Part shown: one piece after another, positions 1-50,449 of the stretch | How the letters are laid out: every line of letters starts with the position of its first letter | Position numbering within the stretch: position 1 is the first letter of the stretch | NCBI RefSeq assembly: GCF_004364155.1 | Contig: NZ_SOAZ01000007.1 | Coordinates: 65,167-129,166 of the forward strand | Reading direction: 5' to 3' | Origin: Fonticella tunisiensis | Lineage (GTDB): Bacteria; Bacillota; Clostridia; Clostridiales; Caloramatoraceae | Length of the DNA stretch: 64,000 bases | Notes under the pieces: model-generated | Databases searched by the model: none | Told to the model about the DNA's origin: nothing | Seen by the model: only the letters and a program-made list of their open reading frames with translations | Position numbers and translations under genes: made by a program

Positions 1-1497
1 ATTGAGAAATATCATATTGGCGGGATTATCTACTTCAATTGGACAGATAACATAGGAACTCCCGTTGATGTATCCCAGGTAAATGCTCTTTCAAATGGAA
101 TTCAGAAAATCGCAATGCAGCAGAGAATGCCAATACCTCTACTTATAGCAACGGATCAGGAAGGTGGAATAGTTGCAAGAGTAACAGAACCTGCAACTGT
201 TTTTCCAGGTAATATGGCATTAGGTGCAACACGTTCATCGGAATATGCATACAAGAGTGGGCAGATTATGGGTAAGGAGCTTAAAGCTCTGGGAATCAAT
301 ATGGATCTGGCACCTACACTGGATGTCAATATTAATTATGAAAATCCTGTAATCGGTGTGCGCTCCTATTCAGAAAACCCGGATTTAGTTTCAGAATTAG
401 GAGTATCTCAGGTTAAAGGTTTCCAGGATCAAAATGTGATTGCTACAGTAAAGCACTTCCCGGGACATGGCGATACAAATGTAGATTCCCATTATGGCCT
501 TCCAATTATTAATCATGACCTAAATACACTCAACAATATAGATTTAAAACCCTTTAAGGATGCTATAGCAGCCGGAGTAGATGCAATAATGACAGCACAT
601 ATTGTAGTCCCAGCACTTGATAATTCAGGACTACCTGCCACACTTTCAAAACCTATATTAACGGATTTATTACGAAATAAGCTTGGCTTTGATGGCGTTA
701 TAATCACAGACAGCCTCGGAATGTCTGGGGCAAATGTCGTATCTCCAGAAAGGGTTCCCGTTGAAGCCTTTAAAGCCGGTGCCGATATACTGCTTAACCC
801 TCCAGATGTCGATTTTGCTTATAACGCAGTCCTAAATGCTGTTAAGGGTGGTGAAATATCTGAAAAACGCCTGGATGAATCAGTATTTAGAATTTTAAGA
901 GTTAAAATGAAAAGAGGTCTTTTTACAAATCCTTACTCAGATTCAAAGGAGACTTCAAATATAGGCACAGAGGGGAATTTAAGGATTGCAGAGGAGATAA
1001 CAAATAAAAGCATTACATTAATAAAAAATGAAAACGGTCTACTTCCTCTAAAGAAGGAAACAAAGGTATTTGTCACCGGGCCATCCCTTGGAAATCCAGT
1101 ATTGCTTTCAGGTTTGCTCTCCAGCGCTGGATTTACAAGCAGTTATTTCAGCACCGGCACAACCCCTACTCCTTCTCAAATCGCTACAGCGGTGTCTAAT
1201 GCCACAGCTTATGATGTAGTAATCGTTACAACTTACACAGCAAATACCAACAAAGGCCAGCAAGATCTTGTTAAGTCACTTCTTAACAGTGGAAAGAAAG
1301 TAATTATAGCAGCCATGAGAAATCCATATGACATTTTAGCGTTCCCTGAAGTAAATGGGTACATTGCCACCTATGGTAACAGGGCAATTTCCACAAGGGC
1401 CCTTCAAAGAGCGTTAATCGGTGAGATAAATCCAGTTGGAAAGCTTCCTGTAACAATACCTGGATTATATCAATATGGCCATGGGCTTAGCTATTGA
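1..1497 (+). CDS. Glycoside hydrolase family 3 beta-N-acetylhexosaminidase (NagZ/YbbD-like), 5' end outside the window
   Basis: Reading frame is open from base 1. KHFPGHGDTNVDSHYGLP catalytic Asp-His motif of GH3 hexosaminidases. C-terminal extension resembles the two-domain YbbD type. Confidence 0.8.
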   Translation: MEKYHIGGIIYFNWTDNIGTPVDVSQVNALSNGIQKIAMQQRMPIPLLIATDQEGGIVARVTEPATVFPGNMALGATRSSEYAYKSGQIMGKELKALGINMDLAPTLDVNINYENPVIGVRSYSENPDLVSELGVSQVKGFQDQNVIATVKHFPGHGDTNVDSHYGLPIINHDLNTLNNIDLKPFKDAIAAGVDAIMTAHIVVPALDNSGLPATLSKPILTDLLRNKLGFDGVIITDSLGMSGANVVSPERVPVEAFKAGADILLNPPDVDFAYNAVLNAVKGGEISEKRLDESVFRILRVKMKRGLFTNPYSDSKETSNIGTEGNLRIAEEITNKSITLIKNENGLLPLKKETKVFVTGPSLGNPVLLSGLLSSAGFTSSYFSTGTTPTPSQIATAVSNATAYDVVIVTTYTANTNKGQQDLVKSLLNSGKKVIIAAMRNPYDILAFPEVNGYIATYGNRAISTRALQRALIGEINPVGKLPVTIPGLYQYGHGLSY

Positions 1498-1583
1498 TTT
1501 TATTATTCTGCCTCATTAGTGTTATATAAAATTTGATTTAGCGTGTAATTATGTATCAAAAATTATACGTATCTTATTAAGTT

Positions 1584-1634
1584 AAAAAATGTGTTGGTTC
1601 TATATTGAAAACGATATTGAACCAACACATTTTA
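1584..1634. terminator. Bidirectional intrinsic terminator between convergent genes
   Basis: 13-bp perfect stem aatgtgttggttc / gaaccaacacatt with flanking A and T runs. Confidence 0.6.
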
Positions 1635-1639
1635 ATCAC

Positions 1640-2854
1640 TTATAAAATGTGATTTAAAAATGAAGTACCATTATCAGGTCTTTTCACATTGAAATATTCT
1701 GAAACCGTAGCTCCTACATCAGAAAGGGTGTCTCTGTGCCCAATGTATCCAGTTTTTACTTGTTTGCCGTATACCAATATTGGCACATTCTCCCTTGTGT
1801 GATGGCTGTGACCTATGGTTGGGTCATTTCCATGATCAGCCATTACTATGAGAATGTCTTCATCCTTCAACATATTCATCAATTCACCTATATACTTATC
1901 AGCTATTATTAACCTTTCTGCATATCTTTCAGGGTTCTCTGCATGTCCAGCAAGATCTGTTTCCTGAACATTTGTACATATAAATCCTTTATCCATTGAA
2001 TTAAATTCCTTTATAGTAAGCTTCATTACCTCTTCTGTATCTATGCAGGAAACGCTCTTTCCATAATCATTTGAGACAATATCTGCTACTTTTCCAAGAA
2101 GAGTAACTCTTATTCCTGCTTTACCAAGTATTGTTGGCACTTGTACTTCCGGGTCAATTCCATATCCTAAATGAATTACCTGATATCCGTTATTATAAAC
2201 TCCTGATTTTGGAGCATTTATCCCAACAAATTTTCCTTCCTTCTCTTCTACTGCATTTAAAATATCCTCCACTTTTACACCTTTTCCGCCAAAAGGTATT
2301 ACCCTTGATACGTTTACTACACTTCTTACAATCTTTCCAATCTTTAAAACTTCGCTATAGGGAATCAAATCTAATGCTGCAGTTAAATTATATATTTGCC
2401 CTGGATCTGCCTCAAGATTATCTCCAACTGTTACGCAGCCGTTTACAAGAAGAAACTTAAGCTTGTTTCCTTTATATTCAACATCATATCCTGCATCCTT
2501 TAATGCCTCATAAACCCTATTTATGCATGCTGAAAATGGCTCTTTTATAGGTTTTTTGGGCTTTGTTCCCATAATTTCCTGATGGCCATAGAAGGTATCG
2601 GCCCCAAAATGTGCAAGACTTGAGGTACCATAGGTTGCATTGGGATTTTTCTTCATATATTTTGTTTCTTCCCCAAGAGCATTCATAATTCCCATCTTCT
2701 CAAGATTAGGAAGCCTTAAGTCAGGTATTTTATCAAGTATATGCTTAAATGTATTTGCTCCAACGTCCTGAGGTCTTACAATCCTTGCATCGTCCATATA
2801 TCCAACTCCAAAGCTATCAAGAACTACAACAACAAATCTTTTCATTAAGCTCAC
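1640..2854 (-). CDS. yhfW: Phosphopentomutase-like metalloenzyme (YhfW family)
   Basis: 404 aa. N-terminus VVLDSFGVG and overall DeoB/alkaline-phosphatase-superfamily pattern. Length and position match E. coli YhfW (408 aa). 4-nt overlap with the upstream gene. Confidence 0.7.
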   Translation of the reverse strand: MSLMKRFVVVVLDSFGVGYMDDARIVRPQDVGANTFKHILDKIPDLRLPNLEKMGIMNALGEETKYMKKNPNATYGTSSLAHFGADTFYGHQEIMGTKPKKPIKEPFSACINRVYEALKDAGYDVEYKGNKLKFLLVNGCVTVGDNLEADPGQIYNLTAALDLIPYSEVLKIGKIVRSVVNVSRVIPFGGKGVKVEDILNAVEEKEGKFVGINAPKSGVYNNGYQVIHLGYGIDPEVQVPTILGKAGIRVTLLGKVADIVSNDYGKSVSCIDTEEVMKLTIKEFNSMDKGFICTNVQETDLAGHAENPERYAERLIIADKYIGELMNMLKDEDILIVMADHGNDPTIGHSHHTRENVPILVYGKQVKTGYIGHRDTLSDVGATVSEYFNVKRPDNGTSFLNHIL

Positions 2855-4014
2855 CTCCTGATTAGTCTTCCGAGGCTATCGTAAATTCCTGCAATCTCCA
2901 CTCGTCCTGAACTGATTCCCTTAACCACTGCTACTTCACTTCTTGTTACAAAAATCTGTGTCCTAAAGCTTAGAATAACAGTTTCTCCAATATTTGCGTT
3001 TTCCTTAAGACATATATAATAATCGATACTGTTCGAATCCGGCATCTCAACTTCAACCCTTTTCATGCTTTCCATACCCTTTCCTACGAGGGCACTATGC
3101 ATGTGGGATCTCCTATAATGTCCTCCTCCATAACAATAGCTTGCATTGCCTAAGTTATGTGAAACCTCACTGACGTAAACGATAGCTGGTATTTCAACTT
3201 CATCCTTTACAGCATGAATTGGCGTTGTCCCAACAAGGCCATGACCTGGCTCTCCATGTGTTCCCCCAAGTTCTGCAATTCTCCTTATGTTGCTTGTACA
3301 TGTCGCAGATGGTGTGTTAATTTCCTTCAATATAATTTTAAAATTCTTCTCAAGAACTTCCTTAGCCTTTAAAATCGTTTTGATATTGTTAGTTTCCTTT
3401 ATGCTCTGCGAATCTGAGTCATAGAGGAAGCAGGGGAATGAAGTTATGCCGTATATATTAACATTTGGCAGCTTAATTATTTCTCCTGCTTTTTCCACCA
3501 GTTCATCTATATAAAATCCTCCGTACTGGCCAGGATAAAAAGTATCATCTTTGTCTATAACTCTAAGCATTATATTCTGATTTATTCCAAGCTTTGCAGC
3601 AATATCGGATATCTCCTTTGCCTTCTCAACAGAATACACTGTTATTACTTCAGGTCTTTTTAAAAGCATTGATTCAATTTTATTGGATGGCACCTGAACT
3701 AAATGCCCTACATGTCCTATCTTTATACCTGAATCGTATAAAATATCTGCTTCCCTGTAATCTACTGCAACAGCCCCTTCATAGCCTAAATCCATTAGTT
3801 TTCTTGATACGTACGGATTTCTTCCAAATTGTTTAGTCATAAAATAAAGTTTAATGCCGTATTTATCCGCTTCATACTTTATCGCCTTTGCGTTACTTAT
3901 AATTGCATCCAGATCAAGTATATATGTGTCAGGCTGAATTACCCCTTCCTGATGCAATTTAAAGGCAGCTTCAATTAACGCTGGATTTCTTCTTAAAGTT
4001 ACATCCAAAAACAT
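2851..4014 (-). CDS. yhfX: Alanine-racemase-like fold-type III PLP enzyme (YhfX family)
   Basis: 387 aa, identical in length to E. coli YhfX. Alr-like N-terminal barrel region. Position in the yhf-type cluster. Confidence 0.65.
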   Translation of the reverse strand: MFLDVTLRRNPALIEAAFKLHQEGVIQPDTYILDLDAIISNAKAIKYEADKYGIKLYFMTKQFGRNPYVSRKLMDLGYEGAVAVDYREADILYDSGIKIGHVGHLVQVPSNKIESMLLKRPEVITVYSVEKAKEISDIAAKLGINQNIMLRVIDKDDTFYPGQYGGFYIDELVEKAGEIIKLPNVNIYGITSFPCFLYDSDSQSIKETNNIKTILKAKEVLEKNFKIILKEINTPSATCTSNIRRIAELGGTHGEPGHGLVGTTPIHAVKDEVEIPAIVYVSEVSHNLGNASYCYGGGHYRRSHMHSALVGKGMESMKRVEVEMPDSNSIDYYICLKENANIGETVILSFRTQIFVTRSEVAVVKGISSGRVEIAGIYDSLGRLIRR

Positions 4015-4029
4015 ACTCTCCCTCCTTCC

Positions 4030-5133
4030 TTACACAACTTTTTCGATTGCTTCCCTTAATATTCTAATTATTGTATCAGCACCTGCACGCATTGGGTTTA
4101 TTCGTATCATTCTTTCCTCAAGTGTCTTATCAGCCTGTCTAAAGGTTCCTGAAACTCTATAAAACATTGGAACAAATTCATATTTTGACTCTGCGCCAAC
4201 TGGGTTTGGAGCTGCACCAAGCTTTTCTGCTTCCTTTAACACTTCCCTAGCAATTGGAGCTTCAAGCTCAACTAAGAGAACCTTGGACTGTGCATTGGCA
4301 AGAAATGCTTTTTTTACACCCCTTATTTCTCCTCTATTTAAGCGTTCCACAAGTTCATTATTAACCTCCGCCTGTATTGCAAGAGCTACAGGAGCATATA
4401 TCAATCCTCTTAAAACCTCCATAGCTTCATGTCCCTGAACCTGTCCTCCACCTGAATAATTGGACTTTATAATTTTCTCGATATATTCTTTCTTACCAAC
4501 AACGCATCCAATCCCTTCCGGACCTAGAAGTTTAAACAGTGAAAATGCGGAAATGTCTGCCCCGCACTGAACTCCTATATTTCTAACCTTCATAACCGCA
4601 TAGTTGTCATCCGTAATAATTGGAATGTCATTTGAATATTTCTTTATCATATCAATAACTTTCTTCATAGCATAGCTATCATCTATCTTCTGTCTTGTAT
4701 ATTGAATTAAAGCCCCATCTACCTTATTTTTGTCTAATGCTTTTTTTATTTCCTCCTCACGATTAAAATCTGCCCTTATGATTTTAAGCCCCATACTCTC
4801 AATTGTAACTGCAGTAGTAGGATATATTGGTGCATCGTGTATTAATAGAGTATCTCCGGGCTTTATCATGCTATATAGTCCCCATCGTATTGCTGCTGTT
4901 CCCGCCCCCCTTACTAAAACTGCAGCTTCCTGATTGAAAAATTCAGCCAGCACCTTTTCAACCTTAAGGGTTGTTGTTGGTTTATTAAATCCTGGTACTA
5001 CCCCTAAATCCCCTAGAGACAATATTTCTTTTCCTTTGAAATATTTTGTTATGATATCAACCAATCTAAACTGAAGCCTTTTTGCTTCCTCAATCGTCAT
5101 AGATTCCAGTGGATAAACTTTCATATTTCTCAC
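4030..5133 (-). CDS. yhfS: PLP-dependent enzyme of the YhfS family (SelA/aminotransferase-like)
   Basis: 367 aa. Segments DAPIYPTTAVTIESMGLKI, TDDNYAVMKVRNIGVQCGADISAFSLFKLLGPEGIGCVVG and GAESKYEFVPMFYRVSGTFRQ match my recollection of E. coli YhfS. Confidence 0.7.
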   Translation of the reverse strand: MRNMKVYPLESMTIEEAKRLQFRLVDIITKYFKGKEILSLGDLGVVPGFNKPTTTLKVEKVLAEFFNQEAAVLVRGAGTAAIRWGLYSMIKPGDTLLIHDAPIYPTTAVTIESMGLKIIRADFNREEEIKKALDKNKVDGALIQYTRQKIDDSYAMKKVIDMIKKYSNDIPIITDDNYAVMKVRNIGVQCGADISAFSLFKLLGPEGIGCVVGKKEYIEKIIKSNYSGGGQVQGHEAMEVLRGLIYAPVALAIQAEVNNELVERLNRGEIRGVKKAFLANAQSKVLLVELEAPIAREVLKEAEKLGAAPNPVGAESKYEFVPMFYRVSGTFRQADKTLEERMIRINPMRAGADTIIRILREAIEKVV

Positions 5134-5136
5134 TTC

Positions 5137-6012
5137 CTATTCAAAAAATTTTACTGCATTTTTCCTCAGCATATTATCGATATCCCTCTGTGTTATTCCA
5201 TTCTCATTAATATAGGGAATGAAATGATCAAGTAAATAACTATATCCTAATCCTCCCCTGGATTTCAGATGAGATTTTCTTGTAATATCCATGGACATTA
5301 ATACTCTGTTTGAAAGGCCTCTTTTGCATATTTCCCGAAGCATTTCAAGCCTTTTTTCTTCCGGCACATAATTTGTCTTACCTATAGTATCAAAGGCTAC
5401 ATACACTCCCTGCTCTATCATTCTTAGGATATAATCAATATCCTCTGATAGATCAACATGTCCTATTATCACTTTATTTAGGTCTACCCCATGTGATTTT
5501 AGAAGTTCTATCTGTTCAAGACCTGATGTACCAAGAGTAGTATGGGTTATTATTGGCCTTCCAGTTTCAATATGTGCTATAGAAGCAGCTATAAATACCT
5601 TTTCTTCAATCGTGGTAATCGTATCTTTACTTGTACCTATTTCTCCTATAATATCCGCCTTAACCTCTGTTCCATCTATCCCTTCTGTTATCTCCTTTAT
5701 CATAATATCTGCCAGTTCCTTTTCTGATAAATTATATACCTCCCTTGGTAAAAAAGGCTCCTTATAATATCCCGTTGAAAATATTATGTTTATGCCTGCT
5801 TCCTCTTGAACCTTTATTGCATACTCAACATTTCTTCCCATCCCTCTGTTCGTTACATCAACTATATTGGAAACGCCTCGTTCCTTCAGTTCTTTTAGCT
5901 CCTTTGTTGTCTCCCTCATGGTGTCGAGCCTGCAGTCTAGATCCTTTTTTGCACCTGATAAATCAATTGTTATATGCTCATGTATATAGGTAATTCCTTC
6001 TTTTAACCTCAT
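5137..6012 (-). CDS. php: Phosphotriesterase homology protein (amidohydrolase superfamily, Php)
   Basis: 291 aa. N-terminal metal-binding HEH motif (ITYIHEHITIDL). Length matches E. coli Php (292 aa). Cluster context. Confidence 0.75.
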   Translation of the reverse strand: MRLKEGITYIHEHITIDLSGAKKDLDCRLDTMRETTKELKELKERGVSNIVDVTNRGMGRNVEYAIKVQEEAGINIIFSTGYYKEPFLPREVYNLSEKELADIMIKEITEGIDGTEVKADIIGEIGTSKDTITTIEEKVFIAASIAHIETGRPIITHTTLGTSGLEQIELLKSHGVDLNKVIIGHVDLSEDIDYILRMIEQGVYVAFDTIGKTNYVPEEKRLEMLREICKRGLSNRVLMSMDITRKSHLKSRGGLGYSYLLDHFIPYINENGITQRDIDNMLRKNAVKFFE

Positions 6013-6023
6013 TTTTACACCCC

Positions 6024-7130
6024 TTACAAAGAAAAAATTATATCCTTATTTTCCCTTAAGTATGATTCTTTAAAATATCTGTAGTAAAGATCAGGAAGGC
6101 TATAAATGTCTTTTAGATTTTCTACTACACTTATTGCTGCCATCCCTTCCTCTAGTCCTTCCTTTGATGTAATCACAATTCCAGAAGCTACTTCGTTAAT
6201 AGGTAAAGTAATACTTGTTGCATTTAACATGTTTGCTATTTTAACCATGTATTTTCCCGATTTATTCTGAACTGATTTTGCAAAACTTCCTAAAGTTCCA
6301 AATACTGAATCTCCAAGTCCAAGGATATCTATAGGTCCTTCACACGTTATGACCATATCATAGGCTTTAAAAATTTCATTCATTCTTTCTATTGAATTCT
6401 CTCTATTCTCAAAATCGGGAAACTCTTCTTCCCCGATGGTTATTTTCATATCCATTAACTTACTTAGTACAAGGTCTAATTTTTCCCTCATGTCCTTTCC
6501 GTCAGGTAAAGTAATTTCTCCTTTTTTGCATATGCAAACCTTTATATTTTCAAAGCGTATAACTTTTTCTTTAACATCAAGCATTGTAAAAATACTCTCT
6601 TTAGCCAGCTCAAAGGAATGGCTTATTACCCCAATACCTGGAACAAACTTTATTCCATCTGTAGATACTCTGTCTATACTGCCTTTAAGCCCCATACCCT
6701 TTGCCATAATGGAACAGAGATTTAAACTAAGTGCAGGTGCAAGAACCGAACCTCCTCCATCTGTTCCTATTCCTATATCATTGATACCATATAATACGTT
6801 TAATGCAGTTGCACTTGAAGAACCTGTCATAGGCCTTAGGGTTAGAGGATTTATTAATCTGTCATCTACTGCCCTTCCCCCTTCTGACATAAAATCTATT
6901 GTATGCCAAACGTATTTTCCTTTATCTATCAGCCTTTTTATATATTTTTTATTAATTTGGCCTGTATTTTTAATTCCTATCGTAATTACCGTATCATGTT
7001 TCATTAAAATATCTTTAACTTCAAGTAATGCATCTTCATTCAACTTTTCAACTGTTTTTTCTAAAAGCTTTGATGCCTTAATTGAGCCTTTTGCTACCTT
7101 TAAAAACTGATTTAATTTATACTCGTACAC
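6024..7130 (-). CDS. Compact amidase-signature (AS) family-like protein
   Basis: 368 aa. TGSSSATAL followed ~24 aa later by GIGTDGGGSVLAPA mirrors the AS core GGSSGG...GTDIGGSIRIPA (cis-Ser and nucleophile Ser). Not part of the E. coli yhf cluster. Confidence 0.5.
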   Translation of the reverse strand: MYEYKLNQFLKVAKGSIKASKLLEKTVEKLNEDALLEVKDILMKHDTVITIGIKNTGQINKKYIKRLIDKGKYVWHTIDFMSEGGRAVDDRLINPLTLRPMTGSSSATALNVLYGINDIGIGTDGGGSVLAPALSLNLCSIMAKGMGLKGSIDRVSTDGIKFVPGIGVISHSFELAKESIFTMLDVKEKVIRFENIKVCICKKGEITLPDGKDMREKLDLVLSKLMDMKITIGEEEFPDFENRENSIERMNEIFKAYDMVITCEGPIDILGLGDSVFGTLGSFAKSVQNKSGKYMVKIANMLNATSITLPINEVASGIVITSKEGLEEGMAAISVVENLKDIYSLPDLYYRYFKESYLRENKDIIFSL

Positions 7131-7191
7131 CTTCCTGCCTCCTAAATAAGTGCTGTTTTTAATTTAAAATGGAGGCTGAAAGCCTCCATTT

Positions 7192-8496
7192 TTATTTAGC
7201 TGCTGGTGGTAAATATAATCCAATAATATAAAGTACATTTATCATGACTCCAACAAGAATTGCCCCTATTGGGCCTACAGCCATGTTTACAATAGGCTTT
7301 TTTGAGCTTTGATTTAATACATATAATCCACCTACTACGAAGAAGCCAAGTCCTGGTGCCATAGCATTTGCTGCCATCATACCACCCACAAGTAATGCAA
7401 CTTCAAGAAGCTTGGACATTGCTGTTCTTATATTGTCTCCACACTTTCTTACTCCAGGGAACTTGTCCAACAACTTGGCAAGCTGGTCAAGAAGCAATAC
7501 TTCAACCACTATTACCGCTGCACCTAGCAGGGCTGCAAGAAGTAAATTCTTGGAAAGTATTCCCACTACGAATACAAAGGTCATTCCTACAGGTCCATAT
7601 ACACCTGTTGCAATAGCTGTCGTTGCAACAAGTGGAATAAATCCTATACCTCTAGCAAAAGCAGTAAGTGCCGCTTCTACATTCTTTCCATTTGCTAAAA
7701 GATTCTGGGAAATTGGGTCCCCTGCAAGTATGGACTGGCTTGTAGCTGCAGCAACAAGCGCTCCTATCAGCGCAAGATATGGAATATTTTTCCTTATCTT
7801 TTTAACTCTTTCGCTAAATAACGCTGTTAAATCAATTGAAACGGCATTTGGATCTGTTTTTTCACTTGCAGCAAATATTATCATGACAATCATACCGGCA
7901 AGCAGTGCCATTCCTTCAGGGTTGAAAGTAACTTTTGCTGTTCCTACGTTAAACTTCCCATAGTACTGCACAAATTGCCTTACTAGAAATGAGATGATAA
8001 GGGTTAATGCTCCCTTTTTAACTCCATACTGATATCCAACAACAAGCGCAGGGAATGCTGCAAAGGCTGCAACGATTGGAGTACCGACCTGTCCAAGCTG
8101 AGACAAGAAATTTACAGGAAGTTTACCAAATGCATCAACAATAAATTTTAATCCATAAAGAAGACCTAAACTGTAAACTGCACCAACAATACCTGAAATT
8201 ATAAGTCCCTTTTTGCCCTCTGGTGCCCAAGTACCAATAATATCTGTTCCAAGTAAAATACTGTGAATCAAGATAATTGTTGCTGTAATGGACATAGGAA
8301 TTCCAAAACCAATAACTAGTCCAAAACCTAATGCAAAGCTTGTTACTGCAAGAGCCTTTTTATCCATTCTACCTTCAAGATATTCGGGAACTATAGGCCT
8401 TAAACCGTCGTTAAATACTGCAACCCCCTTGTTAGCTAGAATTGATGCTAGTACACCAATTAAGGTAACCAATAAATATTTCAATACTTCATTCAT
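7192..8496 (-). CDS. yhfT: Polytopic inner-membrane protein of the YhfT family (putative transporter)
   Basis: 434 aa, identical in length to E. coli YhfT. About 12 predicted hydrophobic helices. Confidence 0.65.
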   Translation of the reverse strand: MNEVLKYLLVTLIGVLASILANKGVAVFNDGLRPIVPEYLEGRMDKKALAVTSFALGFGLVIGFGIPMSITATIILIHSILLGTDIIGTWAPEGKKGLIISGIVGAVYSLGLLYGLKFIVDAFGKLPVNFLSQLGQVGTPIVAAFAAFPALVVGYQYGVKKGALTLIISFLVRQFVQYYGKFNVGTAKVTFNPEGMALLAGMIVMIIFAASEKTDPNAVSIDLTALFSERVKKIRKNIPYLALIGALVAAATSQSILAGDPISQNLLANGKNVEAALTAFARGIGFIPLVATTAIATGVYGPVGMTFVFVVGILSKNLLLAALLGAAVIVVEVLLLDQLAKLLDKFPGVRKCGDNIRTAMSKLLEVALLVGGMMAANAMAPGLGFFVVGGLYVLNQSSKKPIVNMAVGPIGAILVGVMINVLYIIGLYLPPAAK

Positions 8497-8522
8497 AAAT
8501 TATCCCCCTTAGAAGAATTATT

Positions 8523-8882
8523 TTATTTAAGTATTTCATTCATAATAACAGGTATTACCTGATCCATGTGCTGTGGTGTAAAACCAAATGCTTTCTTACC
8601 ACTTTTTACCTCATTTATTATTTCTTCATTGCTTCTTATTTTTCCAGGCATTGAAACAGTTGCGCACAGTCCCATTCCAAGAAGTGCTATTGCCATAGCT
8701 AATGCACCGCCCCCTCCCGTATTGCATGCCCCGAAATAATAATCTGCCTGATTAGTCTTTATTGCCATTGCTGCCTCTATGTCGGACTTTACAGTTACTG
8801 AAACATTATCACCTCCTATTTTTCTAATAAGTTCTGCTACTTTCTCCTTTTCTATCTGTCCGCCAACAACAATTCTAAGCAT
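8523..8882 (-). CDS. yhfU: DUF2620 protein (YhfU family)
   Basis: 119 aa against E. coli YhfU at 117 aa. Cluster position between yhfT and the PRD protein. Confidence 0.6.
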   Translation of the reverse strand: MLRIVVGGQIEKEKVAELIRKIGGDNVSVTVKSDIEAAMAIKTNQADYYFGACNTGGGGALAMAIALLGMGLCATVSMPGKIRSNEEIINEVKSGKKAFGFTPQHMDQVIPVIMNEILK

Positions 8883-8971
8883 TTTGCCTCCCCCTTTATA
8901 AATTTCTATTTTTTAAACTTTTTAGGAACAACTTATAATATAATTTATGAGAGCTAATTAGCCTACATTAA

Positions 8972-9358
8972 CTAATATTTGCATGTGTTATTAAATTGTA
9001 TATTTTCACTTTCGAATAAAACGCAAAGGTGCATCATTATAAATGTTTTTTCACTTTCAGGAATTTCTATATTTAGTTCTTTTTCAAGCAGCTCAAGAAA
9101 TTTTTCACTACTTGTAAACCTGCTGCTGTTTTTTATTTCTTCATATATGGTATCGTTAATATCTTCCACCATCTCACCTTTTTTAATTCTTTCAAAAGCA
9201 ATAGCGAGATGTGTTATGAACATTGCTCCATTTTCTTCAGTAAGTTTTATGTTTAATTCTCTTTCAAAGATTTCAATAACCTTTATGATTGCATCATAAT
9301 TTTCCAGGCTAATCTGGTCTGCATCCTTTAGTATTTGCAACCTAATATTTAAATCCAT
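8972..9358 (-). CDS. yhfY: Small PRD-domain protein (YhfY family)
   Basis: Start at MDLNIRLQ is preceded by an AGGAGGA RBS. The ORF-track ATG at 9379 lacks an RBS. About 128 aa against E. coli YhfY at 120 aa. Confidence 0.5.
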   Translation of the reverse strand: MDLNIRLQILKDADQISLENYDAIIKVIEIFERELNIKLTEENGAMFITHLAIAFERIKKGEMVEDINDTIYEEIKNSSRFTSSEKFLELLEKELNIEIPESEKTFIMMHLCVLFESENIQFNNTCKY

Positions 9359-9405
9359 GCCTATCCTCCTAATGTACATTATTTTGTATATTTAATTTAA
9401 AAAAA

Positions 9406-10332
9406 TTAGTAGTTTGGAATAAGCTCACCTCTTACCACTTTTCTTTGATATTCTAATACTTCTTCGCTATTAATAAATTGCTCAAATATTTTCTTAATTC
9501 CATAGTTATTTTTATTAACTACGATAACTGCTTCTGTATCTTCTCCATTAAAGTCATTATTTTTTAAAGGATAATGTTTGATATCCAGTTTTCTTTCCAC
9601 AATCTCATCTATATTCCATATGGCTGCATCAATTTCTCCTGTAGTAAGTTTCAATATTAACTGGCTATATGATAAATCGATAAGGTTTACTTTCTTACCC
9701 TTGCACTGCTCCAAAGTAAGAAGATAATGATCAATGGAACTTTTATCTATTCCTACTTTCATCCCATCTTTAATAGTGTTATCATTTGAATCTGAGAATA
9801 TAATTACATGCTCATTAACATAGCTGTATTTTCCGAACTCCACTGCTATATCAACTTCTACTCCATTTTTTATACTATAAAGGGCAGCTAGTTTTGAAAC
9901 TATGGCAAAATCATATCTTCCATCTTTTAAAGCTCTAATTCTAGTTTCTGCTCCCCTCATATAAGCTATGCTGAAGGGGAATTTTTTATGGCTGGCTACT
10001 TTGTATAATCCTGTAGCTAAACCTTCATAGAGCTTCGAGTATGGCAAGGGCATAACGCCTGTAATTGTTCCAAAATCAGTAAACTCCCAGAGTATTTCAT
10101 AGTCTATACTGCTTATGAAAGTCCCTAAGTGTCCCCTTGGTTCAAGCCTAATAGCTTTATATTCTTCAAGAAGCTTTATTGCAGACTGCACTGTTCCCCT
10201 TGCCGTTTTATATTTATAGGAATATTCCGCAATAGTGCTAATACGGTCCCCAACATTCATTGTTATGAATTCCCTTGCTAGTTTCATAGCAACAAGACCA
10301 TTTTTTTGTAGTAATTGTGTTTTAATGCTCAT
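9406..10332 (-). CDS. yhfZ: YhfZ-family transcriptional regulator (N-terminal GntR-like HTH plus C-terminal periplasmic-binding-like domain)
   Basis: 308 aa against E. coli YhfZ at 301 aa. HTH region ISTIAEYSYKYKTARGTVQSAIKLLEE. First gene of the cluster. AAGGTGA RBS. Confidence 0.6.
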   Translation of the reverse strand: MSIKTQLLQKNGLVAMKLAREFITMNVGDRISTIAEYSYKYKTARGTVQSAIKLLEEYKAIRLEPRGHLGTFISSIDYEILWEFTDFGTITGVMPLPYSKLYEGLATGLYKVASHKKFPFSIAYMRGAETRIRALKDGRYDFAIVSKLAALYSIKNGVEVDIAVEFGKYSYVNEHVIIFSDSNDNTIKDGMKVGIDKSSIDHYLLTLEQCKGKKVNLIDLSYSQLILKLTTGEIDAAIWNIDEIVERKLDIKHYPLKNNDFNGEDTEAVIVVNKNNYGIKKIFEQFINSEEVLEYQRKVVRGELIPNY

Positions 10333-10347
10333 TTAATCACCTTAATA

Positions 10348-10430
10348 TACAATTTTCTGTACTTTATAATAACATTTATCTTTAGGCATTTCAATATATT
10401 TTTCGTAATATTTAAAATTATTTAATTATT
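10348..10430. repeat. Direct repeat copy 1 (5' region of yhfZ), ~88% identical to 11190-11275
   Basis: aatatacaattttctgtactttataataacatttatctttaggcatttcaatatatttttcgtaatatttaaaatt. Confidence 0.75.
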
Positions 10431-10504
10431 TATTAGATATGTAAACAGCATTCTATACTTTTAATTTTATTAAAGTTTGCTAGCTTCCTCTTTATCCACA
10501 ATAA

Positions 10505-11200
10505 TAGTCACATCTTAATGCAGATGTAAAATCGAAGCAGGGACTTCAGGAGAAATTTTCCCTTTTACAGTTCGTGCTATAGCATCAGACTTTGCAATAC
10601 TGCTAGCTAGAAGAATCATTATCTTTGAATGCATTATAGTTTTTATCCTCATACTTATAGCCTTTTTTGGTACTTTATCAATAGAATTGAAAAATCTAGA
10701 ATTCGCCCCAATAGTGCTTCTATCAAGATTTACAAGGTGGGTTTTCGCCTCAAAATTAACGTCCGGTTCATTAAATCCTATATATCCAATTATCCCTATT
10801 CCAAGAATCTGAATATCTATCCCACCGGCTTCTTTTATTTTTCTCTCATAGTTTAAACACTCTTGTTCTATGTCCTTTGCGTACCATTAGGTATATTAAT
10901 ATTCTGGGTTTAAATATTCTATGTGGCTAAACAGGTTTTTCATCATGTAGTAATAATAACTTTGTAGATTTTTTTCCGATTCCATAGTATTCATCCAGGT
11001 TAAATGTTTTAACTCTCGAAAAATCTATTTCTTTATTATTGTACATTTTAATTGATTCTTTATACATTCCTAATGGTGTATCCCCCGTAGCTAGTCATAA
11101 AATGCTGTTTGGTTTTAAAATTATCTAGTTTGCTATAAAAGTAACTACTTTTTTTGTAGCAAATACGTTTGTATATTCTTGTTTAAACTCAATATACAAT
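10505..11200 (-). pseudogene. nagB: Glucosamine-6-phosphate deaminase (nagB) pseudogene
   Basis: Hand translation of the minus strand gives NagB-like [42 protein letters not shown] and a C-terminal PASILHLH. It carries at least 4 in-frame stops and a +1 frameshift in an A7 run. Confidence 0.75.
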
Positions 11201-11275
11201 TTTCTGTATTCTCATAATAACATTTATTTTTACGTTTTTTCAATATATTTTTATAATATTTAAAATTGCTTAACT
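11190..11275. repeat. Direct repeat copy 2 (5' region of the nagB pseudogene)
   Basis: aatatacaattttctgtattctcataataacatttatttttacgttttttcaatatatttttataatatttaaaatt. Confidence 0.75.
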
Positions 11276-11346
11276 TTTTGTGAAAACTATGAGTTACAAA
11301 CAGAAACGGAAACTCGGAAATCAGCAGCTGAAAGGTATACAATTTA

Positions 11347-12069
11347 TTAACCACTTCCAAACCATCGCAATCTATATGCGTTAATCGCAGTATCACCCAG
11401 TTTGTTCATAAGCTTATAATTGGCATAGGCACCAACTGCTGCACCTATGCCTGGAACGAGCTGAAGCATTTTTGCAACATCGATGTAATCCCTGTATTCC
11501 TGTTGAAAGGTTTTCCAGTCGAAGGAGTTTAAATCCCTGGGAAGTTCATGTACTCTTTTCTCCCAGTCCAGTATTTCATAATAAACCTCTCTCCTTCTCA
11601 TTTCACTTGAAAAGGCCAGCTGGAAAATATAAAGAATATACAACCTTTCCTTATAGTCTTTTACATCAAAACCATATAGGCTTGCCGCATCAAAGAGGAA
11701 TTTCATCTTAAGGCTCAATAGAAGGGGAAAATCAGTTAATCCAAGTATAATACCTCCAGCCCCGGTTCCTGCGCCGCTTACTGCAGCAGCTTTTTTATAA
11801 AAATCTATTTTATTCCTTACCTGCTCCTCCCTCTCCCGCAGTGAGCCAACTATTAATGGTCCCTTTGTAATATACTCAGAGCCGATGATAACTGCCTTTA
11901 CCATGTTCTTTATTGCTACAGTAATAACCTCATGAAATTTTTCAGGTATTAAATCATTTATTTTATTTTGCACTCCCTTTGTAAGCCTTCCTGTAATAGA
12001 TGGCCTTTTGCTCATCTTCTTCTGCCAGTATTTTAGTTCCTCTAAGGCTTTTTCTTCATACAAATCCAT
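11347..12069 (-). CDS. EcsC family protein
   Basis: 240 aa. Glycine-rich AAVSGAGTGAGGIILG segment and the overall EcsC pattern. No ecsA/ecsB nearby. Confidence 0.55.
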   Translation of the reverse strand: MDLYEEKALEELKYWQKKMSKRPSITGRLTKGVQNKINDLIPEKFHEVITVAIKNMVKAVIIGSEYITKGPLIVGSLREREEQVRNKIDFYKKAAAVSGAGTGAGGIILGLTDFPLLLSLKMKFLFDAASLYGFDVKDYKERLYILYIFQLAFSSEMRRREVYYEILDWEKRVHELPRDLNSFDWKTFQQEYRDYIDVAKMLQLVPGIGAAVGAYANYKLMNKLGDTAINAYRLRWFGSG

Positions 12070-12249
12070 ATCATTACCTCACAAAACACTATTTTTCTAT
12101 TTCCATAATCCTTTATATTTTTCTTCTGTCCTATTATATCCTTTTAGTTTAAAGCTTTATTCACACTATCAACAGTATCTATTTAAAATATATCTTTAAA
12201 TAATAACTAAATCAAATATATAAATTAATACGTTGTGCTATTTCACAAA

Positions 12250-12352
12250 CCTTCTTAGACTGTGCGAATCCGATGCCATAGAGTTTCTTTGCGAAGTGCA
12301 GTAGCGACTGGAATATATTTTTTATCACAGCATCGGCCTGTAAATTTATCTA
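12250..12352. repeat. MITE-like element, partial copy (right TIR end)
   Basis: ggaatatattttttatcacagcatcggcctgtaaatttatct matches the terminus of the full copies. Confidence 0.6.
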
Positions 12353-13006
12353 TCAAAACGAGTTAAATTAGCAAATTTCTTATTCCTAACATCTGATAGT
12401 GCCTTTACATTTCAACCATTCTAAATGATTCTGGTAGGAATAGGTTTTAAAGCCGCTATAAGTTTATATCTCAACATTAAGCTAGTAACAATAATAAATT
12501 AAACCTATCCTTTTATGTCAATTGTTCATAAATATTGGTAAAATACAATTTTTAATGTATTTTGAAGAAATCATAAGAATTATAGCTTATATTGTGTTTT
12601 TTAATTAATTTTTTGTCTTGACTTTACAAGAGCATAAATTTATGTTATCATTCTTAATAACAATTATTCATTATCTTCTAAAACTCAATATCTTTCAGAG
12701 TTAGCATTTTATGCTTTCTTTTAAACAAGTCTTTAATTTTATCTATCTTTCAACTTTAAGCCAATTGGTTTTAAGATCGATCTTATTGAAACTCTGTGGG
12801 ATCATTTCATTATTCACAAATGATTATTAGAATCTGTCTTAATGAATTCAGACCTAAATTTTACCTGTTATAAAAGGCTTGTTTCATTAACTTTCCTATT
12901 AAAAGTCTGTTTCTCATGTGCTGCCTTTACTTCTTTCAATTTCTATGGGATCCCCTTTCATAAGCTCTTTTAAGGCAGTAAATTGCTATTTAAAGGAGGT
13001 AGATCA

Positions 13007-14134
13007 ATGATAGAATTCAAGAATGTAAAAAAATCCTTTAAAAACAATGAAATCCTTAAAGGAATTAACCTTAAAATCAATAAGGGTGAGCTTGTTGTAC
13101 TCATTGGACCCAGTGGATGTGGTAAGACAACTACACTTAAGATGATAAATAAACTTATAAATCCTACATCTGGAAAAATACTCATAAACGGAAAAGACAT
13201 AGCTAACGAAGATACAATAGAACTTAGAAGAAACATAGGATATGTAATTCAGCAGACAGGTCTCTTTCCTCATATGACAGTTAGAGAAAACATTGGTCTT
13301 GTTCCTTACCTAAAGAAATGGCCAGAGGACAAGATTAGGAAAAGAACCATTGAACTTTTAGAACTTGTTGGACTAAAGCCCGATGAGTATATTGATAGAT
13401 ACCCCGGCGAACTTAGTGGTGGACAACAGCAAAGGATCGGCATTGCACGAGCATTTGCGGCAGACCCTGAAATAATCCTAATGGACGAGCCTTTCAGTGC
13501 CCTTGACCCTATAACAAGAAACCAGCTTCAGGACGAATTATTTAATCTGCAGAATGAGCTTAAAAAGACAATAATTTTTGTTACCCATGATATAGACGAA
13601 GCTCTAAAGCTTGGAAATAGAATATGCATTATGAAGGATGGAAATATACTTCAATTCGATACTCCTGAGAACATTCTAAAGAATCCTGCCCATGGATTTG
13701 TTGAGGAATTCGTAGGAAAGAAAAGGATCTGGAATCAGCCAGAACTTATAAAAGCAAAGGATATTATGATAGAGGATCCTATAAAGACTACTGGAAAAAG
13801 AACTGTTTTTCAGGGAATTGAAATGATGACATCAAATCAAGTTAACAGTCTTATGATTGTAAACAAAGATGGGAAACTTGAAGGAATAGTAACATTGAAG
13901 GATATCAGAAAGTCTCAGGATAACAACTTAAAGCTTGAAGATATAATGGAACAAAATATAATATCAGTTAATGTTAATGATTCCATAGTAAACATATTGG
14001 AAAAAATGAATGAAAATAATGTAGGATATATTCCAGTTACAGATAGTGAAATGAGACTTGTTGGCCTTATTACAAGAAGCAGCTTATTAACTGTCCTCAG
14101 CAGGCAGTTCCTTGATGAGGAGGTGGCTAATTAA
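13007..14134 (+). CDS. Glycine betaine/carnitine/choline ABC transporter ATP-binding protein with tandem CBS domains (OpuCA/OpuAA type)
   Basis: Walker A GPSGCGKTT, LSGGQQQR signature and a C-terminal CBS pair. AGGAGG RBS 7 nt before the ATG at 13007. Confidence 0.8.
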   Translation: MIEFKNVKKSFKNNEILKGINLKINKGELVVLIGPSGCGKTTTLKMINKLINPTSGKILINGKDIANEDTIELRRNIGYVIQQTGLFPHMTVRENIGLVPYLKKWPEDKIRKRTIELLELVGLKPDEYIDRYPGELSGGQQQRIGIARAFAADPEIILMDEPFSALDPITRNQLQDELFNLQNELKKTIIFVTHDIDEALKLGNRICIMKDGNILQFDTPENILKNPAHGFVEEFVGKKRIWNQPELIKAKDIMIEDPIKTTGKRTVFQGIEMMTSNQVNSLMIVNKDGKLEGIVTLKDIRKSQDNNLKLEDIMEQNIISVNVNDSIVNILEKMNENNVGYIPVTDSEMRLVGLITRSSLLTVLSRQFLDEEVAN

Positions 14135-15708
14135 TGCTAAAAGAGTTTTTAGATTTTGTATTAAGTAGACAGGATCAAATATTAAAATTGTTATCTGAGC
14201 ATATCACGTTAACTATATTCGCCGTATTACTTTCAATACTCATAGGCATTCCACTCGGTATATTAATAACAAGAATTAAGAAGCTTTCAGGACCTGTAAT
14301 AGGAGCTGCAAACATAGTACAAGCAATTCCAAGCCTTGCCCTTTTAGGTTTCCTTATTCCGTTTCTTGGAATAGGAAGCAAACCTGCAATAGTTATGGTA
14401 TTTCTTTATTCTTTGCTTCCTATTATTAAAAATACCTACACAGGCCTTACAAACATAAATCCTGACATGCTTGAAGCCTCAAGGGCAATGGGAATGACAG
14501 GCAGCCAGATCTTAAGAATGGTTCAGCTTCCACTAGCACTTCCTATTATCATGACGGGCATAAGAATATCTGCAGTTACAGCGGTGGGACTTATGACAAT
14601 CGCTGCCTTCGTTGGAGCAGGGGGACTAGGATACATGGTATTTTCAGGTGTGCAAACAGTTAATAACTATATGATTTTAGCTGGCGCTATTCCTGCATGT
14701 ATACTTGCCCTTTTAATGGACTTTATTATTGGAAAGGTTGAAGGTGTTGTAACACCCCAGGGAATCAAAACAGGAGACAGATATTCAAAGACTAAAAAAA
14801 GCAGTCACATACCAAAAAAGGTTAGCGCTGCTATTGCAGGAGGGTTGGCAATCATTCTAATTGCTGGAATTTTGACATCCATTGGTGGTAAAAAGGATAC
14901 CATAGTAATAGGTTCGAAGGACTTCAATGAACAGCTCATACTTGGAAATATGATGGCTATACTCATCGAGGAAAACACTGATTTAAAGGTTGAGAAAAAA
15001 TTAAATTTGGGCGGTACAAACGTTGTATTTAGCGCTTTAAAAACAGGAGATGTCGATTTATATGTTGAATATACAGGTACAGGCCTAGTTAACATTATGC
15101 AGCATGATGTTGTAAACGATCCTGATGAGGCATATAACATTGTAAAGGAATATTTTGATAAAAACTACAACCTTAAATGGCTAAAGCCCCTCGGATTTAA
15201 CAACACATATACCCTGGCAGTTACAAAGGAAACAGCTAAAAAGTATAGCCTTGAAACCTTCTCAGATCTTGCAAAAGTTAGCGATAAGCTTATTTTAGGT
15301 TCTACAATAGAATTCTCTACCAGACCTGATGGGTATCCTGGATTAAAAGAAGCCTATAACATGAATTTTGGTGATGTTAAAGCTGTAAATGGAGGTCTTA
15401 GATATACAGCAATCAACAGCGGTAAATCACATGTTATAGACGCCTTTGCAACAGATGGGCTATTGAAGGCCTTTGACCTTAAAGTTCTAAAGGATGACAA
15501 ACAGTTCTTCCCACCATACTTTGCAGCTCCACTTGTTAGAAAGGACACTCTAAATAAACATCCTGAAATTGAGGGAATTTTAAATAAACTTTCAGGGCTT
15601 ATAAACGATGATGTTATGAGGGATCTTAACTACAGAGTAGATAAGCTAAATGAAAAACCTGAAGATGTGGCAAGGAATTTCCTGAAGGAAAAAGGATTAA
15701 TTAAATAA
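14134..15708 (+). CDS. Fused ABC permease plus substrate-binding domain of an OpuC/OpuB-type compatible-solute importer
   Basis: N-terminal half carries the permease EAA-like region. C-terminal ~300 aa is an OpuAC-like binding domain. TAATG start/stop overlap with the ATPase gene. Confidence 0.75.
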   Translation: MLKEFLDFVLSRQDQILKLLSEHITLTIFAVLLSILIGIPLGILITRIKKLSGPVIGAANIVQAIPSLALLGFLIPFLGIGSKPAIVMVFLYSLLPIIKNTYTGLTNINPDMLEASRAMGMTGSQILRMVQLPLALPIIMTGIRISAVTAVGLMTIAAFVGAGGLGYMVFSGVQTVNNYMILAGAIPACILALLMDFIIGKVEGVVTPQGIKTGDRYSKTKKSSHIPKKVSAAIAGGLAIILIAGILTSIGGKKDTIVIGSKDFNEQLILGNMMAILIEENTDLKVEKKLNLGGTNVVFSALKTGDVDLYVEYTGTGLVNIMQHDVVNDPDEAYNIVKEYFDKNYNLKWLKPLGFNNTYTLAVTKETAKKYSLETFSDLAKVSDKLILGSTIEFSTRPDGYPGLKEAYNMNFGDVKAVNGGLRYTAINSGKSHVIDAFATDGLLKAFDLKVLKDDKQFFPPYFAAPLVRKDTLNKHPEIEGILNKLSGLINDDVMRDLNYRVDKLNEKPEDVARNFLKEKGLIK

Positions 15709-50203: not shown

Positions 50204-50449
50204 TTAAAATAATCCAATTATCTCATCTAAAGCCTGTTTCTCATCTTCTCCATCTATTATAAGTTCAATTGTTTCGCCACATTTTAAAGCAAGGCTTAAT
50301 AGGTTAAGTATACTTTTTGCGGATATCAATTTACCATCTTTTTTAATATATATAGTGCTTTTAAATTTGTTGGCAGCCTTTAATATTTCAGCTGCAGGCC
50401 TTGCATGAAAACCATCATCCCTTTTTATAGTTATCTGTCTTTCGATCAT
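50204..50449 (-). CDS. HPr-like phosphocarrier protein dedicated to the dha operon
   Basis: 81 aa. His15 in GFHARPA and a Ser46-region KSILNLLSL. Confidence 0.75.
   Translation of the reverse strand: MIERQITIKRDDGFHARPAAEILKAANKFKSTIYIKKDGKLISAKSILNLLSLALKCGETIELIIDGEDEKQALDEIIGLF

Follow-up and report, generated by a model that had tools for sequence, protein, structure and literature searches.

An amidase-bearing yhf operon in Fonticella tunisiensis, and leads from locus comparison to its possible function

The yhf cluster of the Fonticella window

A 64,000-nucleotide stretch of the Fonticella tunisiensis genome (contig NZ_SOAZ01000007.1, positions 65,167 to 129,166; the whole stretch is called the window below) carries on its minus strand, at 1640-10332, nine co-directional open reading frames (ORFs) with intergenic gaps of -4 to 89 bp, in the order Z-Y-U-T-amidase-Php-S-X-W (Table 1). 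Families were assigned by Pfam and NCBIfam profile searches, and the proteins were compared with those of Escherichia coli K-12 by blastp. All eight families of the E. coli yhf operon (b3383-b3376) are found in the window, full-length, co-directional, contiguous and at near-identical lengths. Identities to the K-12 proteins are 34% for YhfZ, 26% for YhfY, 38% for YhfU, 36% for YhfT, 45% for YhfX and 55% for each of Php, YhfS and YhfW. The YhfU and YhfT of the window match F. tunisiensis proteins with 100% identity. The two operons are almost certainly orthologous. An earlier note, drawn up from the letters of this DNA, had described nine co-directional genes that reproduce the eight E. coli families at near-identical lengths, and the profile searches and full-length alignments (26-55% identity) bear this out. 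The same note listed the genes in the E. coli order, which is not that of the window: E. coli has Z-Y-X-W-php-U-T-S, and the adjacent pairs common to both operons are Z-Y, U-T and X-W. Moreover, an amidase gene is inserted between yhfT and php in the window and is absent from the E. coli operon, and the flanks differ, being frl and trpS in E. coli and a GH3 glycosidase gene and a nagB relic in the window.

The regulator YhfZ passes the NCBIfam equivalog model NF041241 (YhfZ_full) with 415.7 bits against a cutoff of 260. The stand-alone PRD protein YhfY probably starts at Met8, giving 128 aa (the gene call in a sister assembly, L082, gives 122 aa), and its PRD histidines are kept in at least 95% (His57) and at least 80% (His117) of 75 homologues. 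Likely starts at 5124 and 2845 shorten YhfS and YhfW to 364 and 401 aa, respectively.

By alignment, all enzymes of the operon retain their predicted catalytic residues. Php keeps six of the six metal ligands of PDB 1BF6 and is 55% identical to E. coli Php; despite this identity, it scores 403.5 bits against the 486 required by the Php equivalog (NF007373/PRK09875). Phospho-sugar lactonases of the Lmo2620/Bh0225 type (NF045706, PDB 3PNZ) share the fold and the binuclear metal site of Php and are encoded in sugar-phosphate catabolic operons. The window protein groups with E. coli Php, apart from these lactonases, and its scores against them are 114.8 bits for NF045706 (cutoff 630) and 128 bits for 3PNZ. 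In YhfW, the G-x-DT nucleophile motif and the ADHGNDP and HTRE metal motifs align with Bacillus cereus phosphopentomutase, and the protein falls below the models of DeoB proper (PRK05362, 202.6 bits versus 256; TIGR01696, 170.2 versus 341.2). Judged by these scores, Php and YhfW each form a subfamily of their own. The lysine that binds pyridoxal 5'-phosphate (PLP) is conserved in YhfX (Lys61; match to PDB 4KBX, E = 4e-105), as is the PLP-lysine motif of YhfS (match to PDB 4J8L, E = 2.6e-126). The label "SelA-like", which the earlier note had given to YhfS, is a weak one: the Pfam SelA match reaches 20.9 bits, below the cutoff of 22.8, over 36 residues, and the closest relatives are fold-type-I PLP enzymes of Cys/Met metabolism.

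Signals in the DNA indicate that the nine genes form one transcription unit, bounded by a candidate promoter ahead of yhfZ and a strong terminator behind yhfW. The 148-nt terminator region folds with -32.1 kcal/mol (z = -5.5), and none of 200 shuffles was equally stable. The promoter-like site, which is followed by a ribosome-binding site (AAGGTGA), is called a candidate because promoter-like sites of the sigma-70 type are as numerous in this region as in shuffled sequence. An Rfam scan of window positions 1-13500 gave no match above noise, and a search for operators as inverted repeats gave no convincing candidate.

Table 1. Features of the yhf locus in the window, with the evidence for each
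Feature	Position	Strand	Evidence or description
yhfZ-like regulator, 308 aa	9406..10332	-	HTH_41 DNA-binding domain and YhfZ_C effector domain (Pfam PF14502, PF14503)
yhfY-like stand-alone PRD protein, 135 aa ORF	8972..9379	-	Pfam PRD, 63.7 bits
yhfU-like DUF2620 protein, 119 aa	8523..8882	-	DUF2620, 163 bits; RpiB/EIIB-like alpha/beta fold
yhfT-like polytopic membrane protein, 434 aa, presumed permease	7192..8496	-	PF10797, 591 bits
Short amidase-signature enzyme, 368 aa	6024..7130	-	Pfam Amidase, 28.9 bits, weak match
php-like binuclear-metal hydrolase, phosphotriesterase family, 291 aa	5137..6012	-	Pfam PTE, 316.9 bits
yhfS-like fold-type-I PLP enzyme, 367 aa ORF	4030..5133	-	YhfS-like_C, 156 bits, and Cys_Met_Meta_PP
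yhfX-like fold-type-III (alanine-racemase-like) PLP enzyme, 387 aa	2851..4014	-	Ala_racemase_N and YhfX-like_C
yhfW-like phosphomutase, phosphopentomutase (DeoB) family, 404 aa ORF	1640..2854	-	PRK12383, 631.9 bits (cutoff 254)
Bidirectional intrinsic terminator between yhfW and the convergent GH3 gene	1586..1633	.	15-bp perfect stem, then U-run, directly after the yhfW stop
Promoter-like site upstream of yhfZ, candidate	10366..10394	-	TTGAAA-17-TATTAT with TG extension; weak evidence
nagB pseudogene	about 10473..11178	-	tblastn with intact cluster-linked NagB; two segments in different frames

In E. coli, the yhf operon and Php within it have been a puzzle for a long time; crystal structures are available for at least Php, YhfS and YhfX. 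In agreement with what had been noted earlier, our literature search, which largely leaves subscription journals outside its coverage, found no substrate or pathway assigned to the cluster. A 2025 paper calls YhfZ a "putative transcription factor"; RefSeq product names (2026) for the yhf proteins are "putative" or "uncharacterized", and the PDB titles of 4J8L (YhfS) and 4KBX (YhfX) read "Uncharacterized protein". Searches of the same literature for DUF2620, for SFCGS/DUF4311, for the enzyme combinations and for a phosphotransferase system (PTS) in Petrotoga returned no functional information.

Conservation of the locus and its recurrent partners

A YhfT pattern search with one genome per species gave 199 confirmed loci, 80 of which were taken with 10-kb flanks. 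Together with E. coli and the window these make a set of 82 loci, in which all ORFs were clustered; about 90 loci were compared overall. Each of the eight core families is present in 66-81 of the 82 loci, which span Clostridia, Bacillaceae, Negativicutes, Fusobacteria, Leptotrichia, Synergistetes, Thermotogae, Vibrio, Pasteurella and Citrobacter. Synteny of eight families over several phyla far exceeds chance. The pairs Z-Y, U-T, Php-S and X-W survive rearrangement across the compared loci, and Z-Y-U-T-[amidase]-Php-S-X-W is the order of most Clostridia-type loci. The window cluster is thus an intact, ordinary member of the family, in the amidase-bearing nine-gene form that is mostly clostridial. 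Since it is an ordinary orthologue, the window by itself adds little; what makes the finding useful are the testable leads from the locus comparison. The gene set also occurs in gut Clostridia, Bacillus and oral Leptotrichia, so that its reach goes beyond E. coli.

Near-complete clusters were found in a Rickettsiales endosymbiont of Ecdyonurus torrentis (L053) and in a metagenome-assembled genome of the Mycoplasmatales (L059), both assemblies being taken as given; an accessory catabolic operon is surprising in genomes expected to be strongly reduced. An apparent loss of Php and YhfS in locus L073 is probably due to assembly frameshifts. Other flanking genes (two-component systems, methyl-accepting chemotaxis proteins, ATP-binding cassette (ABC) transporters, MBOAT proteins, beta-lactamase-family proteins, electron transfer flavoproteins and a polysaccharide deacetylase) were set aside as sporadic or lineage-specific. 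Linkage to frl (fructoselysine) genes as in E. coli was not seen elsewhere among these loci, where just generic neighbours of the APC-permease or GntR type occur in 2-3 loci.

The amidase recurs. It is present in 27 of the 80 scanned loci, either between T and Php or after W, the latter in the Clostridium tertium group. Three distant homologues with 43-48% identity (Thermoanaerobacterium, Geosporobacter and Alkalicella) all lie in identical nine-gene clusters, and among the 965 homologues found, every one whose locus was examined is within a yhf cluster. The gene is indeed lacking from the E. coli operon, as the earlier note had it, and it is not peculiar to the window. The protein is a divergent member of its family: its Pfam match (PF01425, cutoff 27 bits) is limited to residues 101-161 of the protein, the family domain covering about 445 positions. 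Typical members are longer by about 100 aa, and the scores against all NCBIfam models for amidases are far below cutoff. Its motif is GSSS...GTDGGGSVLAPA, in line with the family signature GSS...GTD-GGS, and the Ser-cisSer-Lys triad (K54, S104 and S128) is invariant in 28 homologues. The two serines are 24 residues apart, as in fatty acid amide hydrolase (FAAH). Because the gene recurs in the scanned loci and in all three distant clusters and its triad is invariant, we consider the amidase a dedicated accessory of the operon, a role that would suit a substrate or intermediate with an amide in the lineages concerned. In the C. tertium/sartagoforme group (L026-L035, L068 and L074), the amidase gene comes last, behind yhfW, and most of these loci continue with two genes assigned by eye, one for a membrane acyltransferase that resembles MBOAT proteins and one for a partner of 470 aa.

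The second recurrent partner is nagB. Among 115 co-directional flanking ORFs, Glucosamine_iso is the sole strongly recurring family (10 members), and HAD phosphatases recur 3-4 times (a Cof-type HAD sugar-phosphatase in 3 loci). An intact nagB lies directly downstream of the cluster and co-directional with it in 13 loci from five orders, among Bacillaceae, Clostridia, Thermotogae, Negativicutes and Oscillospiraceae; in Geosporobacter it overlaps yhfW by 4 bp. These linked proteins pass TIGR00502 with 290-314 bits against a cutoff of 236.9. By contrast, nagA was found in none of 85 loci. The presence of nagB without nagA points to non-acetylated glucosamine-6-phosphate as an exit metabolite, an assignment that we hold tentatively, at a little under even odds.

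In the window itself, nagB is a pseudogene rather than an intact gene. The relic has at least four in-frame stops and a frameshift, and its two segments show 41% and 36% identity. It is not a sequencing error, since it is also present in the independent, 99.65%-identical assembly L082. The decay described in the earlier note is therefore real; the head-to-head arrangement described with it is not, as the relic lies upstream of yhfZ on the same strand as the cluster, head-to-tail. In Bacillus changyiensis (L066, 15709-16363), a cluster-linked nagB is broken into three fragments, a second independent decay beside an intact yhf cluster.

Probable links to the phosphotransferase system and the YhfT-YhfU pair

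A PRD protein is encoded in 75 of the 82 loci. In Petrotoga (L011, 14062-15983), genes for HPr and then Enzyme I (EI) follow downstream in the yhf operon in the same direction, and in a Thermotogae locus (L015, 16822-20893) the operon continues with nagB, HPr, EI and aldose 1-epimerase genes, a NUDIX gene being present too; the gaps at these in-operon HPr and EI genes are 8-44 bp. Geosporobacter (L084) has an HPr gene after nagB, without EI, and HPr and EI occur again in a high-GC variant (L087), in which DUF2620 is fused to a PRD. Canonical EIIA, EIIB and EIIC domains were found neither in the window operon nor in the operons that bear HPr and EI, and no kinase is among the recurrent families of the co-directional flanking ORFs. 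Phosphorylated compounds are the substrates of YhfW, NagB, the HAD phosphatase and the relatives of Php. Taken together, some coupling of the yhf operon to the PTS or to HPr is probable. The operon of the window has no EI or HPr gene; an HPr-like ORF at 50225-50449 (minus strand), 40 kb away, shares 37% identity with the HPr encoded in the Geosporobacter operon and probably represents the general HPr, or Crh, of Fonticella.

The yhf operon shares with canonical PTS operons under PRD regulators (LicT, MtlR) a PRD module with both histidines; it pairs a permease with a small cytoplasmic Cys protein of EIIB-like topology; and it has no kinase, though its downstream enzymes act on phosphates. It differs in having, in place of a single regulator, two proteins, one GntR-like and one with just a PRD. 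A second comparison is with the cluster EF_0829-EF_0839/AHA_3910 (TIGR03576-TIGR03583), which has a similar set of parts: a stand-alone PRD protein, an SFCGS protein that is rich in glycine and related to DUF2620, a PLP enzyme, an amidohydrolase and membrane proteins. Its membrane components belong to families other than YhfT, and this cluster is not known to have been characterised either. YhfY, YhfU and YhfS of the window match its models weakly, all far below cutoff (for example TIGR03577, 21.5 versus 141).

YhfU belongs to a family of 175 representatives at 50% clustering, and its gene is adjacent to yhfT in nearly every gene order, including the divergent variants L088-L090 with other enzyme sets; in L087 the two genes are in one locus and non-adjacent. 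The protein has a fold like that of RpiB/LacAB (PF02502), with a Cys-x-Thr after strand 3. This motif (Cys53-x-Thr55) is invariant, lies in a Gly-rich loop and aligns with the CGTG motif of RpiB. By structure, YhfU is matched best by ribose-5-phosphate isomerases B, and the Cys falls within the catalytic motif. At the level of sequence, the window YhfU has no match to PF02502, and E. coli YhfU reaches 13.6 bits versus 24.7. Moreover, the Asp/His of the first loop in RpiB is replaced by Gly-Gly-Gln in YhfU, which is also about 30 residues shorter than RpiB/LacAB and, unlike them, nearly always encoded beside a membrane protein. The position of the Cys after strand 3 is that of RpiB, compared to strand 1 in EIIB proteins of the Lac, Gat and Mtl types. 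Apparent Rosetta-stone fusions found with the YhfU profile (Php-YhfU, YhfU-YhfT and a YhfU-Php fragment) mostly look like read-through or frameshift artefacts; the DUF2620-PRD fusion is the one found in a coherent operon.

Of two readings of YhfU, we lean towards a phosphoryl-carrying partner of YhfT that would take phosphate from an EI-HPr relay to the substrate; the alternative is a soluble sugar-phosphate isomerase like RpiB. That YhfT and YhfU act as a phosphorylating permease is a possibility to which we give about one chance in three. The stronger form, in which YhfT and YhfU would be a previously unrecognised PTS Enzyme II, with YhfU phosphorylating the substrate and YhfY reporting its phosphorylation state to YhfZ, we consider unlikely. 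If the substrate is indeed phosphorylated by YhfT/YhfU, the two would constitute a new family within the PTS.

Three variants on metagenome contigs place the pair in other company. The first, with 64% GC (L087, 1-10077), encodes YhfT, two dehydrogenase-like proteins, a divergent GntR/UTRA regulator, the DUF2620-PRD fusion, YhfW, YhfX, HPr, EI and an aldolase of the 2-keto-3-deoxy-6-phosphogluconate (KDPG) type (PF01081), and has no Php, YhfS or YhfZ. In another (L089, 1-7502), genes for an MttB-family methyltransferase and a corrinoid protein separate the PRD gene from DUF2620-YhfT, next to YhfS and YhfX, and this arrangement suggests an N-methylated substrate in that lineage. In the last, with 73% GC (L090, 1-5310), YhfT-DUF2620-PTE is followed by a sugar-type ABC transporter of two permeases and a binding protein, so that the T-U-Php core is joined to a second uptake system. 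The T/U uptake module appears to be reused with Php/S/X/W, with W/X and an aldolase, with X/S and an MttB methyltransferase, and with Php and an ABC system.

A possible pathway and its alternatives

We propose that yhf is a PTS-linked catabolic operon for a nitrogen-containing sugar derivative, with glucosamine-6-phosphate as the probable exit, and give this reading a probability of roughly 0.45. Expression would be controlled by YhfZ, through its DNA-binding and ligand domains, and by the stand-alone PRD protein YhfY, which would read the phosphorylation state of HPr. YhfT would import the substrate together with YhfU, and YhfU would pass phosphate to it from the EI-HPr relay, which would explain why a kinase is never present. 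Php may then open or deacylate the phosphorylated intermediate, which in the nine-gene form would also be deamidated by the amidase-signature enzyme. An alpha-amino centre would be processed by YhfX, in the manner of a racemase or dehydratase, and by YhfS, in the manner of a lyase or transaminase, and the DeoB-like mutase YhfW would move the phosphate. Carbon and nitrogen would leave as glucosamine-6-phosphate, to be converted by NagB to fructose-6-phosphate and ammonia. With its linked nagB decayed, Fonticella would have to rely on another NagB copy.

Several points weigh against this proposal, which was drawn from sequences and gene neighbourhoods. Linkage to nagB is seen in only about 15% of loci, and the copy in the window is dead. 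No EIIA is present, and YhfT has no homologue of solved structure and resembles none of the EIIC proteins whose structures are known. EI and HPr might be there solely to phosphorylate the PRD protein. The known natural chemistry of the phosphotriesterase family is hydrolysis of lactones or phosphoesters, not of amides. Vibrio clusters lack YhfS, and the KDPG-type aldolase of L087 and the MttB and corrinoid proteins of L089 hint at other exits and chemistries.

The enzymes could instead serve a pentose- or nucleoside-like route, in which YhfW would be a pentose 1-/5-phosphate mutase, YhfU an RpiB-type isomerase and Php a phospho-pentonolactonase. A ribosyl- or pentosyl-amino-acid or nucleoside-like compound would then enter the pentose-phosphate pathway, with YhfX and YhfS handling the amino-acid part and nagB being secondary. 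YhfW does pass the "phosphopentomutase" model PRK12383 with the DeoB catalytic motifs kept, the structural matches of YhfU are ribose-5-phosphate isomerases B with the Cys in the catalytic motif, and the nearest characterised relatives of Php include phospho-furanose lactonases. We nevertheless regard this route as improbable: it leaves nagB without nagA in 13 loci unexplained, no nucleoside phosphorylase or hydrolase recurs among the co-directional flanking ORFs, YhfW lies below the DeoB-proper cutoffs and Php far below the lactonase cutoff of 630, and YhfU, at 119 aa compared to about 150, by eye lacks the C-terminal segment that bears the phosphate-binding arginines of RpiB. A low probability also attaches to catabolism of an amino-sugar acid, similar to that of D-glucosaminate in Salmonella. 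Here a 2-amino-2-deoxy-aldonic acid, or its lactone or lactam, would be phosphorylated on uptake, ring-opened by Php, and epimerised or deaminated at the alpha-amino carbon by YhfX and YhfS to a 2-keto-3-deoxy-phospho-sugar acid for a housekeeping KDPG aldolase. The dga pathway of Salmonella is PTS-fed and works with a PLP ammonia-lyase and an aldolase; D-glucosaminate and D-serine dehydratases are among the PLP enzymes of fold type III. Two PLP enzymes for an alpha-amino acid centre next to a lactonase-family hydrolase fit such a scheme, as does L087, which joins YhfT, YhfU-PRD, YhfW, YhfX, HPr and EI with two dehydrogenase-like genes and the KDPG-type aldolase. The aldolase, however, is found in one of about 90 loci, the recurrent exit enzyme NagB acts on an aldose phosphate and not on an aldonate, YhfS is below the threshold of the SelA/DgaE-type family, and the phosphomutase YhfW is given no role. 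The dgaABCDEF and NagB/GamA systems take up an amino sugar, or an acid derived from one, through the PTS and deaminate the 6-phosphate by a PLP or isomerase-type enzyme, which the proposed yhf pathway would have in common with them. The yhf operon differs from dga in lacking a mannose-family PTS, a sigma-54 activator and, but for one locus, an aldolase, and in a YhfS that falls outside SelA/DgaE by thresholds.

A further reading takes the neighbourhood in Fonticella as an amino-sugar island of GH3, a PTS gene of the N-acetylglucosamine (GlcNAc) type, yhf and nagB, in which GH3 would free the yhf substrate from chitin or peptidoglycan. The GH3 gene (window 1-1497, plus strand) runs off the left edge of the window and is convergent with yhfW at a distance of 142 bp, tail-to-tail as described earlier. 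The full protein, taken from L082, is a putative secreted beta-N-acetylhexosaminidase of the YbbD/NagZ type; it has 593 aa, a signal peptide and a NagZ-type KHFPGHGDTNVDSH motif, which fits KH(F/I)PG(H/L)G...D(S/T)H, and scores 194.1 bits against the NF003740 cutoff of 207. In L082 (10905-13879), its gene is paired divergently with one for a GlcNAc-type PTS EIICB. The signal peptide and motif, the adjoining EIICB gene and the nagB relic on the opposite flank would all suit an island, as would one Sporomusaceae locus with GntR, PTS EIIBC and MupG genes downstream. Against it, no other independent locus has GH3 beside the cluster, the strong terminator separates the two in the window, and the GlcNAc that a NagZ-type enzyme sets free would call for NagA, whose gene is linked in none of the 85 loci. 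PTS EIIC genes of the Glc family are near about 6 of 85 loci (three in Leptotrichia, and in Mycoplasmatales, Sporomusaceae and Fonticella); this linkage was not used, because we judge it, by a rough estimate, to be at about chance level for 20-kb neighbourhoods in PTS-rich genomes. The island is highly improbable, and GH3 was ruled out as a functional partner. As a non-recurring gene behind a bidirectional terminator and paired with a GlcNAc-type PTS gene, GH3 is most simply a separate unit, and with EIICB it looks like one for GlcNAc scavenging. Thus, of the partners named in the earlier note, the neighbourhood comparison upholds the amidase and nagB as recurrent, and not GH3. Its suggestion of an amino-sugar substrate keeps support from nagB in 13 loci and from the recurrent amidase; the argument from placement does not hold, as GH3 does not recur and the relic is dead and differently oriented.

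Under the proposed catabolism of a nitrogen-containing sugar derivative, the search target narrows to a compound that yields glucosamine-6-phosphate without deacetylation, that carries an amide in amidase-bearing lineages, and whose use requires an EI-HPr relay. Solving the substrate would give function to the Pfam families YhfT, DUF2620, YhfZ_C, YhfS-like_C and YhfX-like_C together.

Beyond the nagB relic, the window continues upstream with an ORF of the EcsC family (11347-12069, minus strand; Pfam family from the L082 gene table). At 12983-15708 on the plus strand lie an ABC transporter ATPase gene with a C-terminal CBS-like region and then a 524-aa ORF, which from their translations have the appearance of an osmoprotectant-type uptake system.

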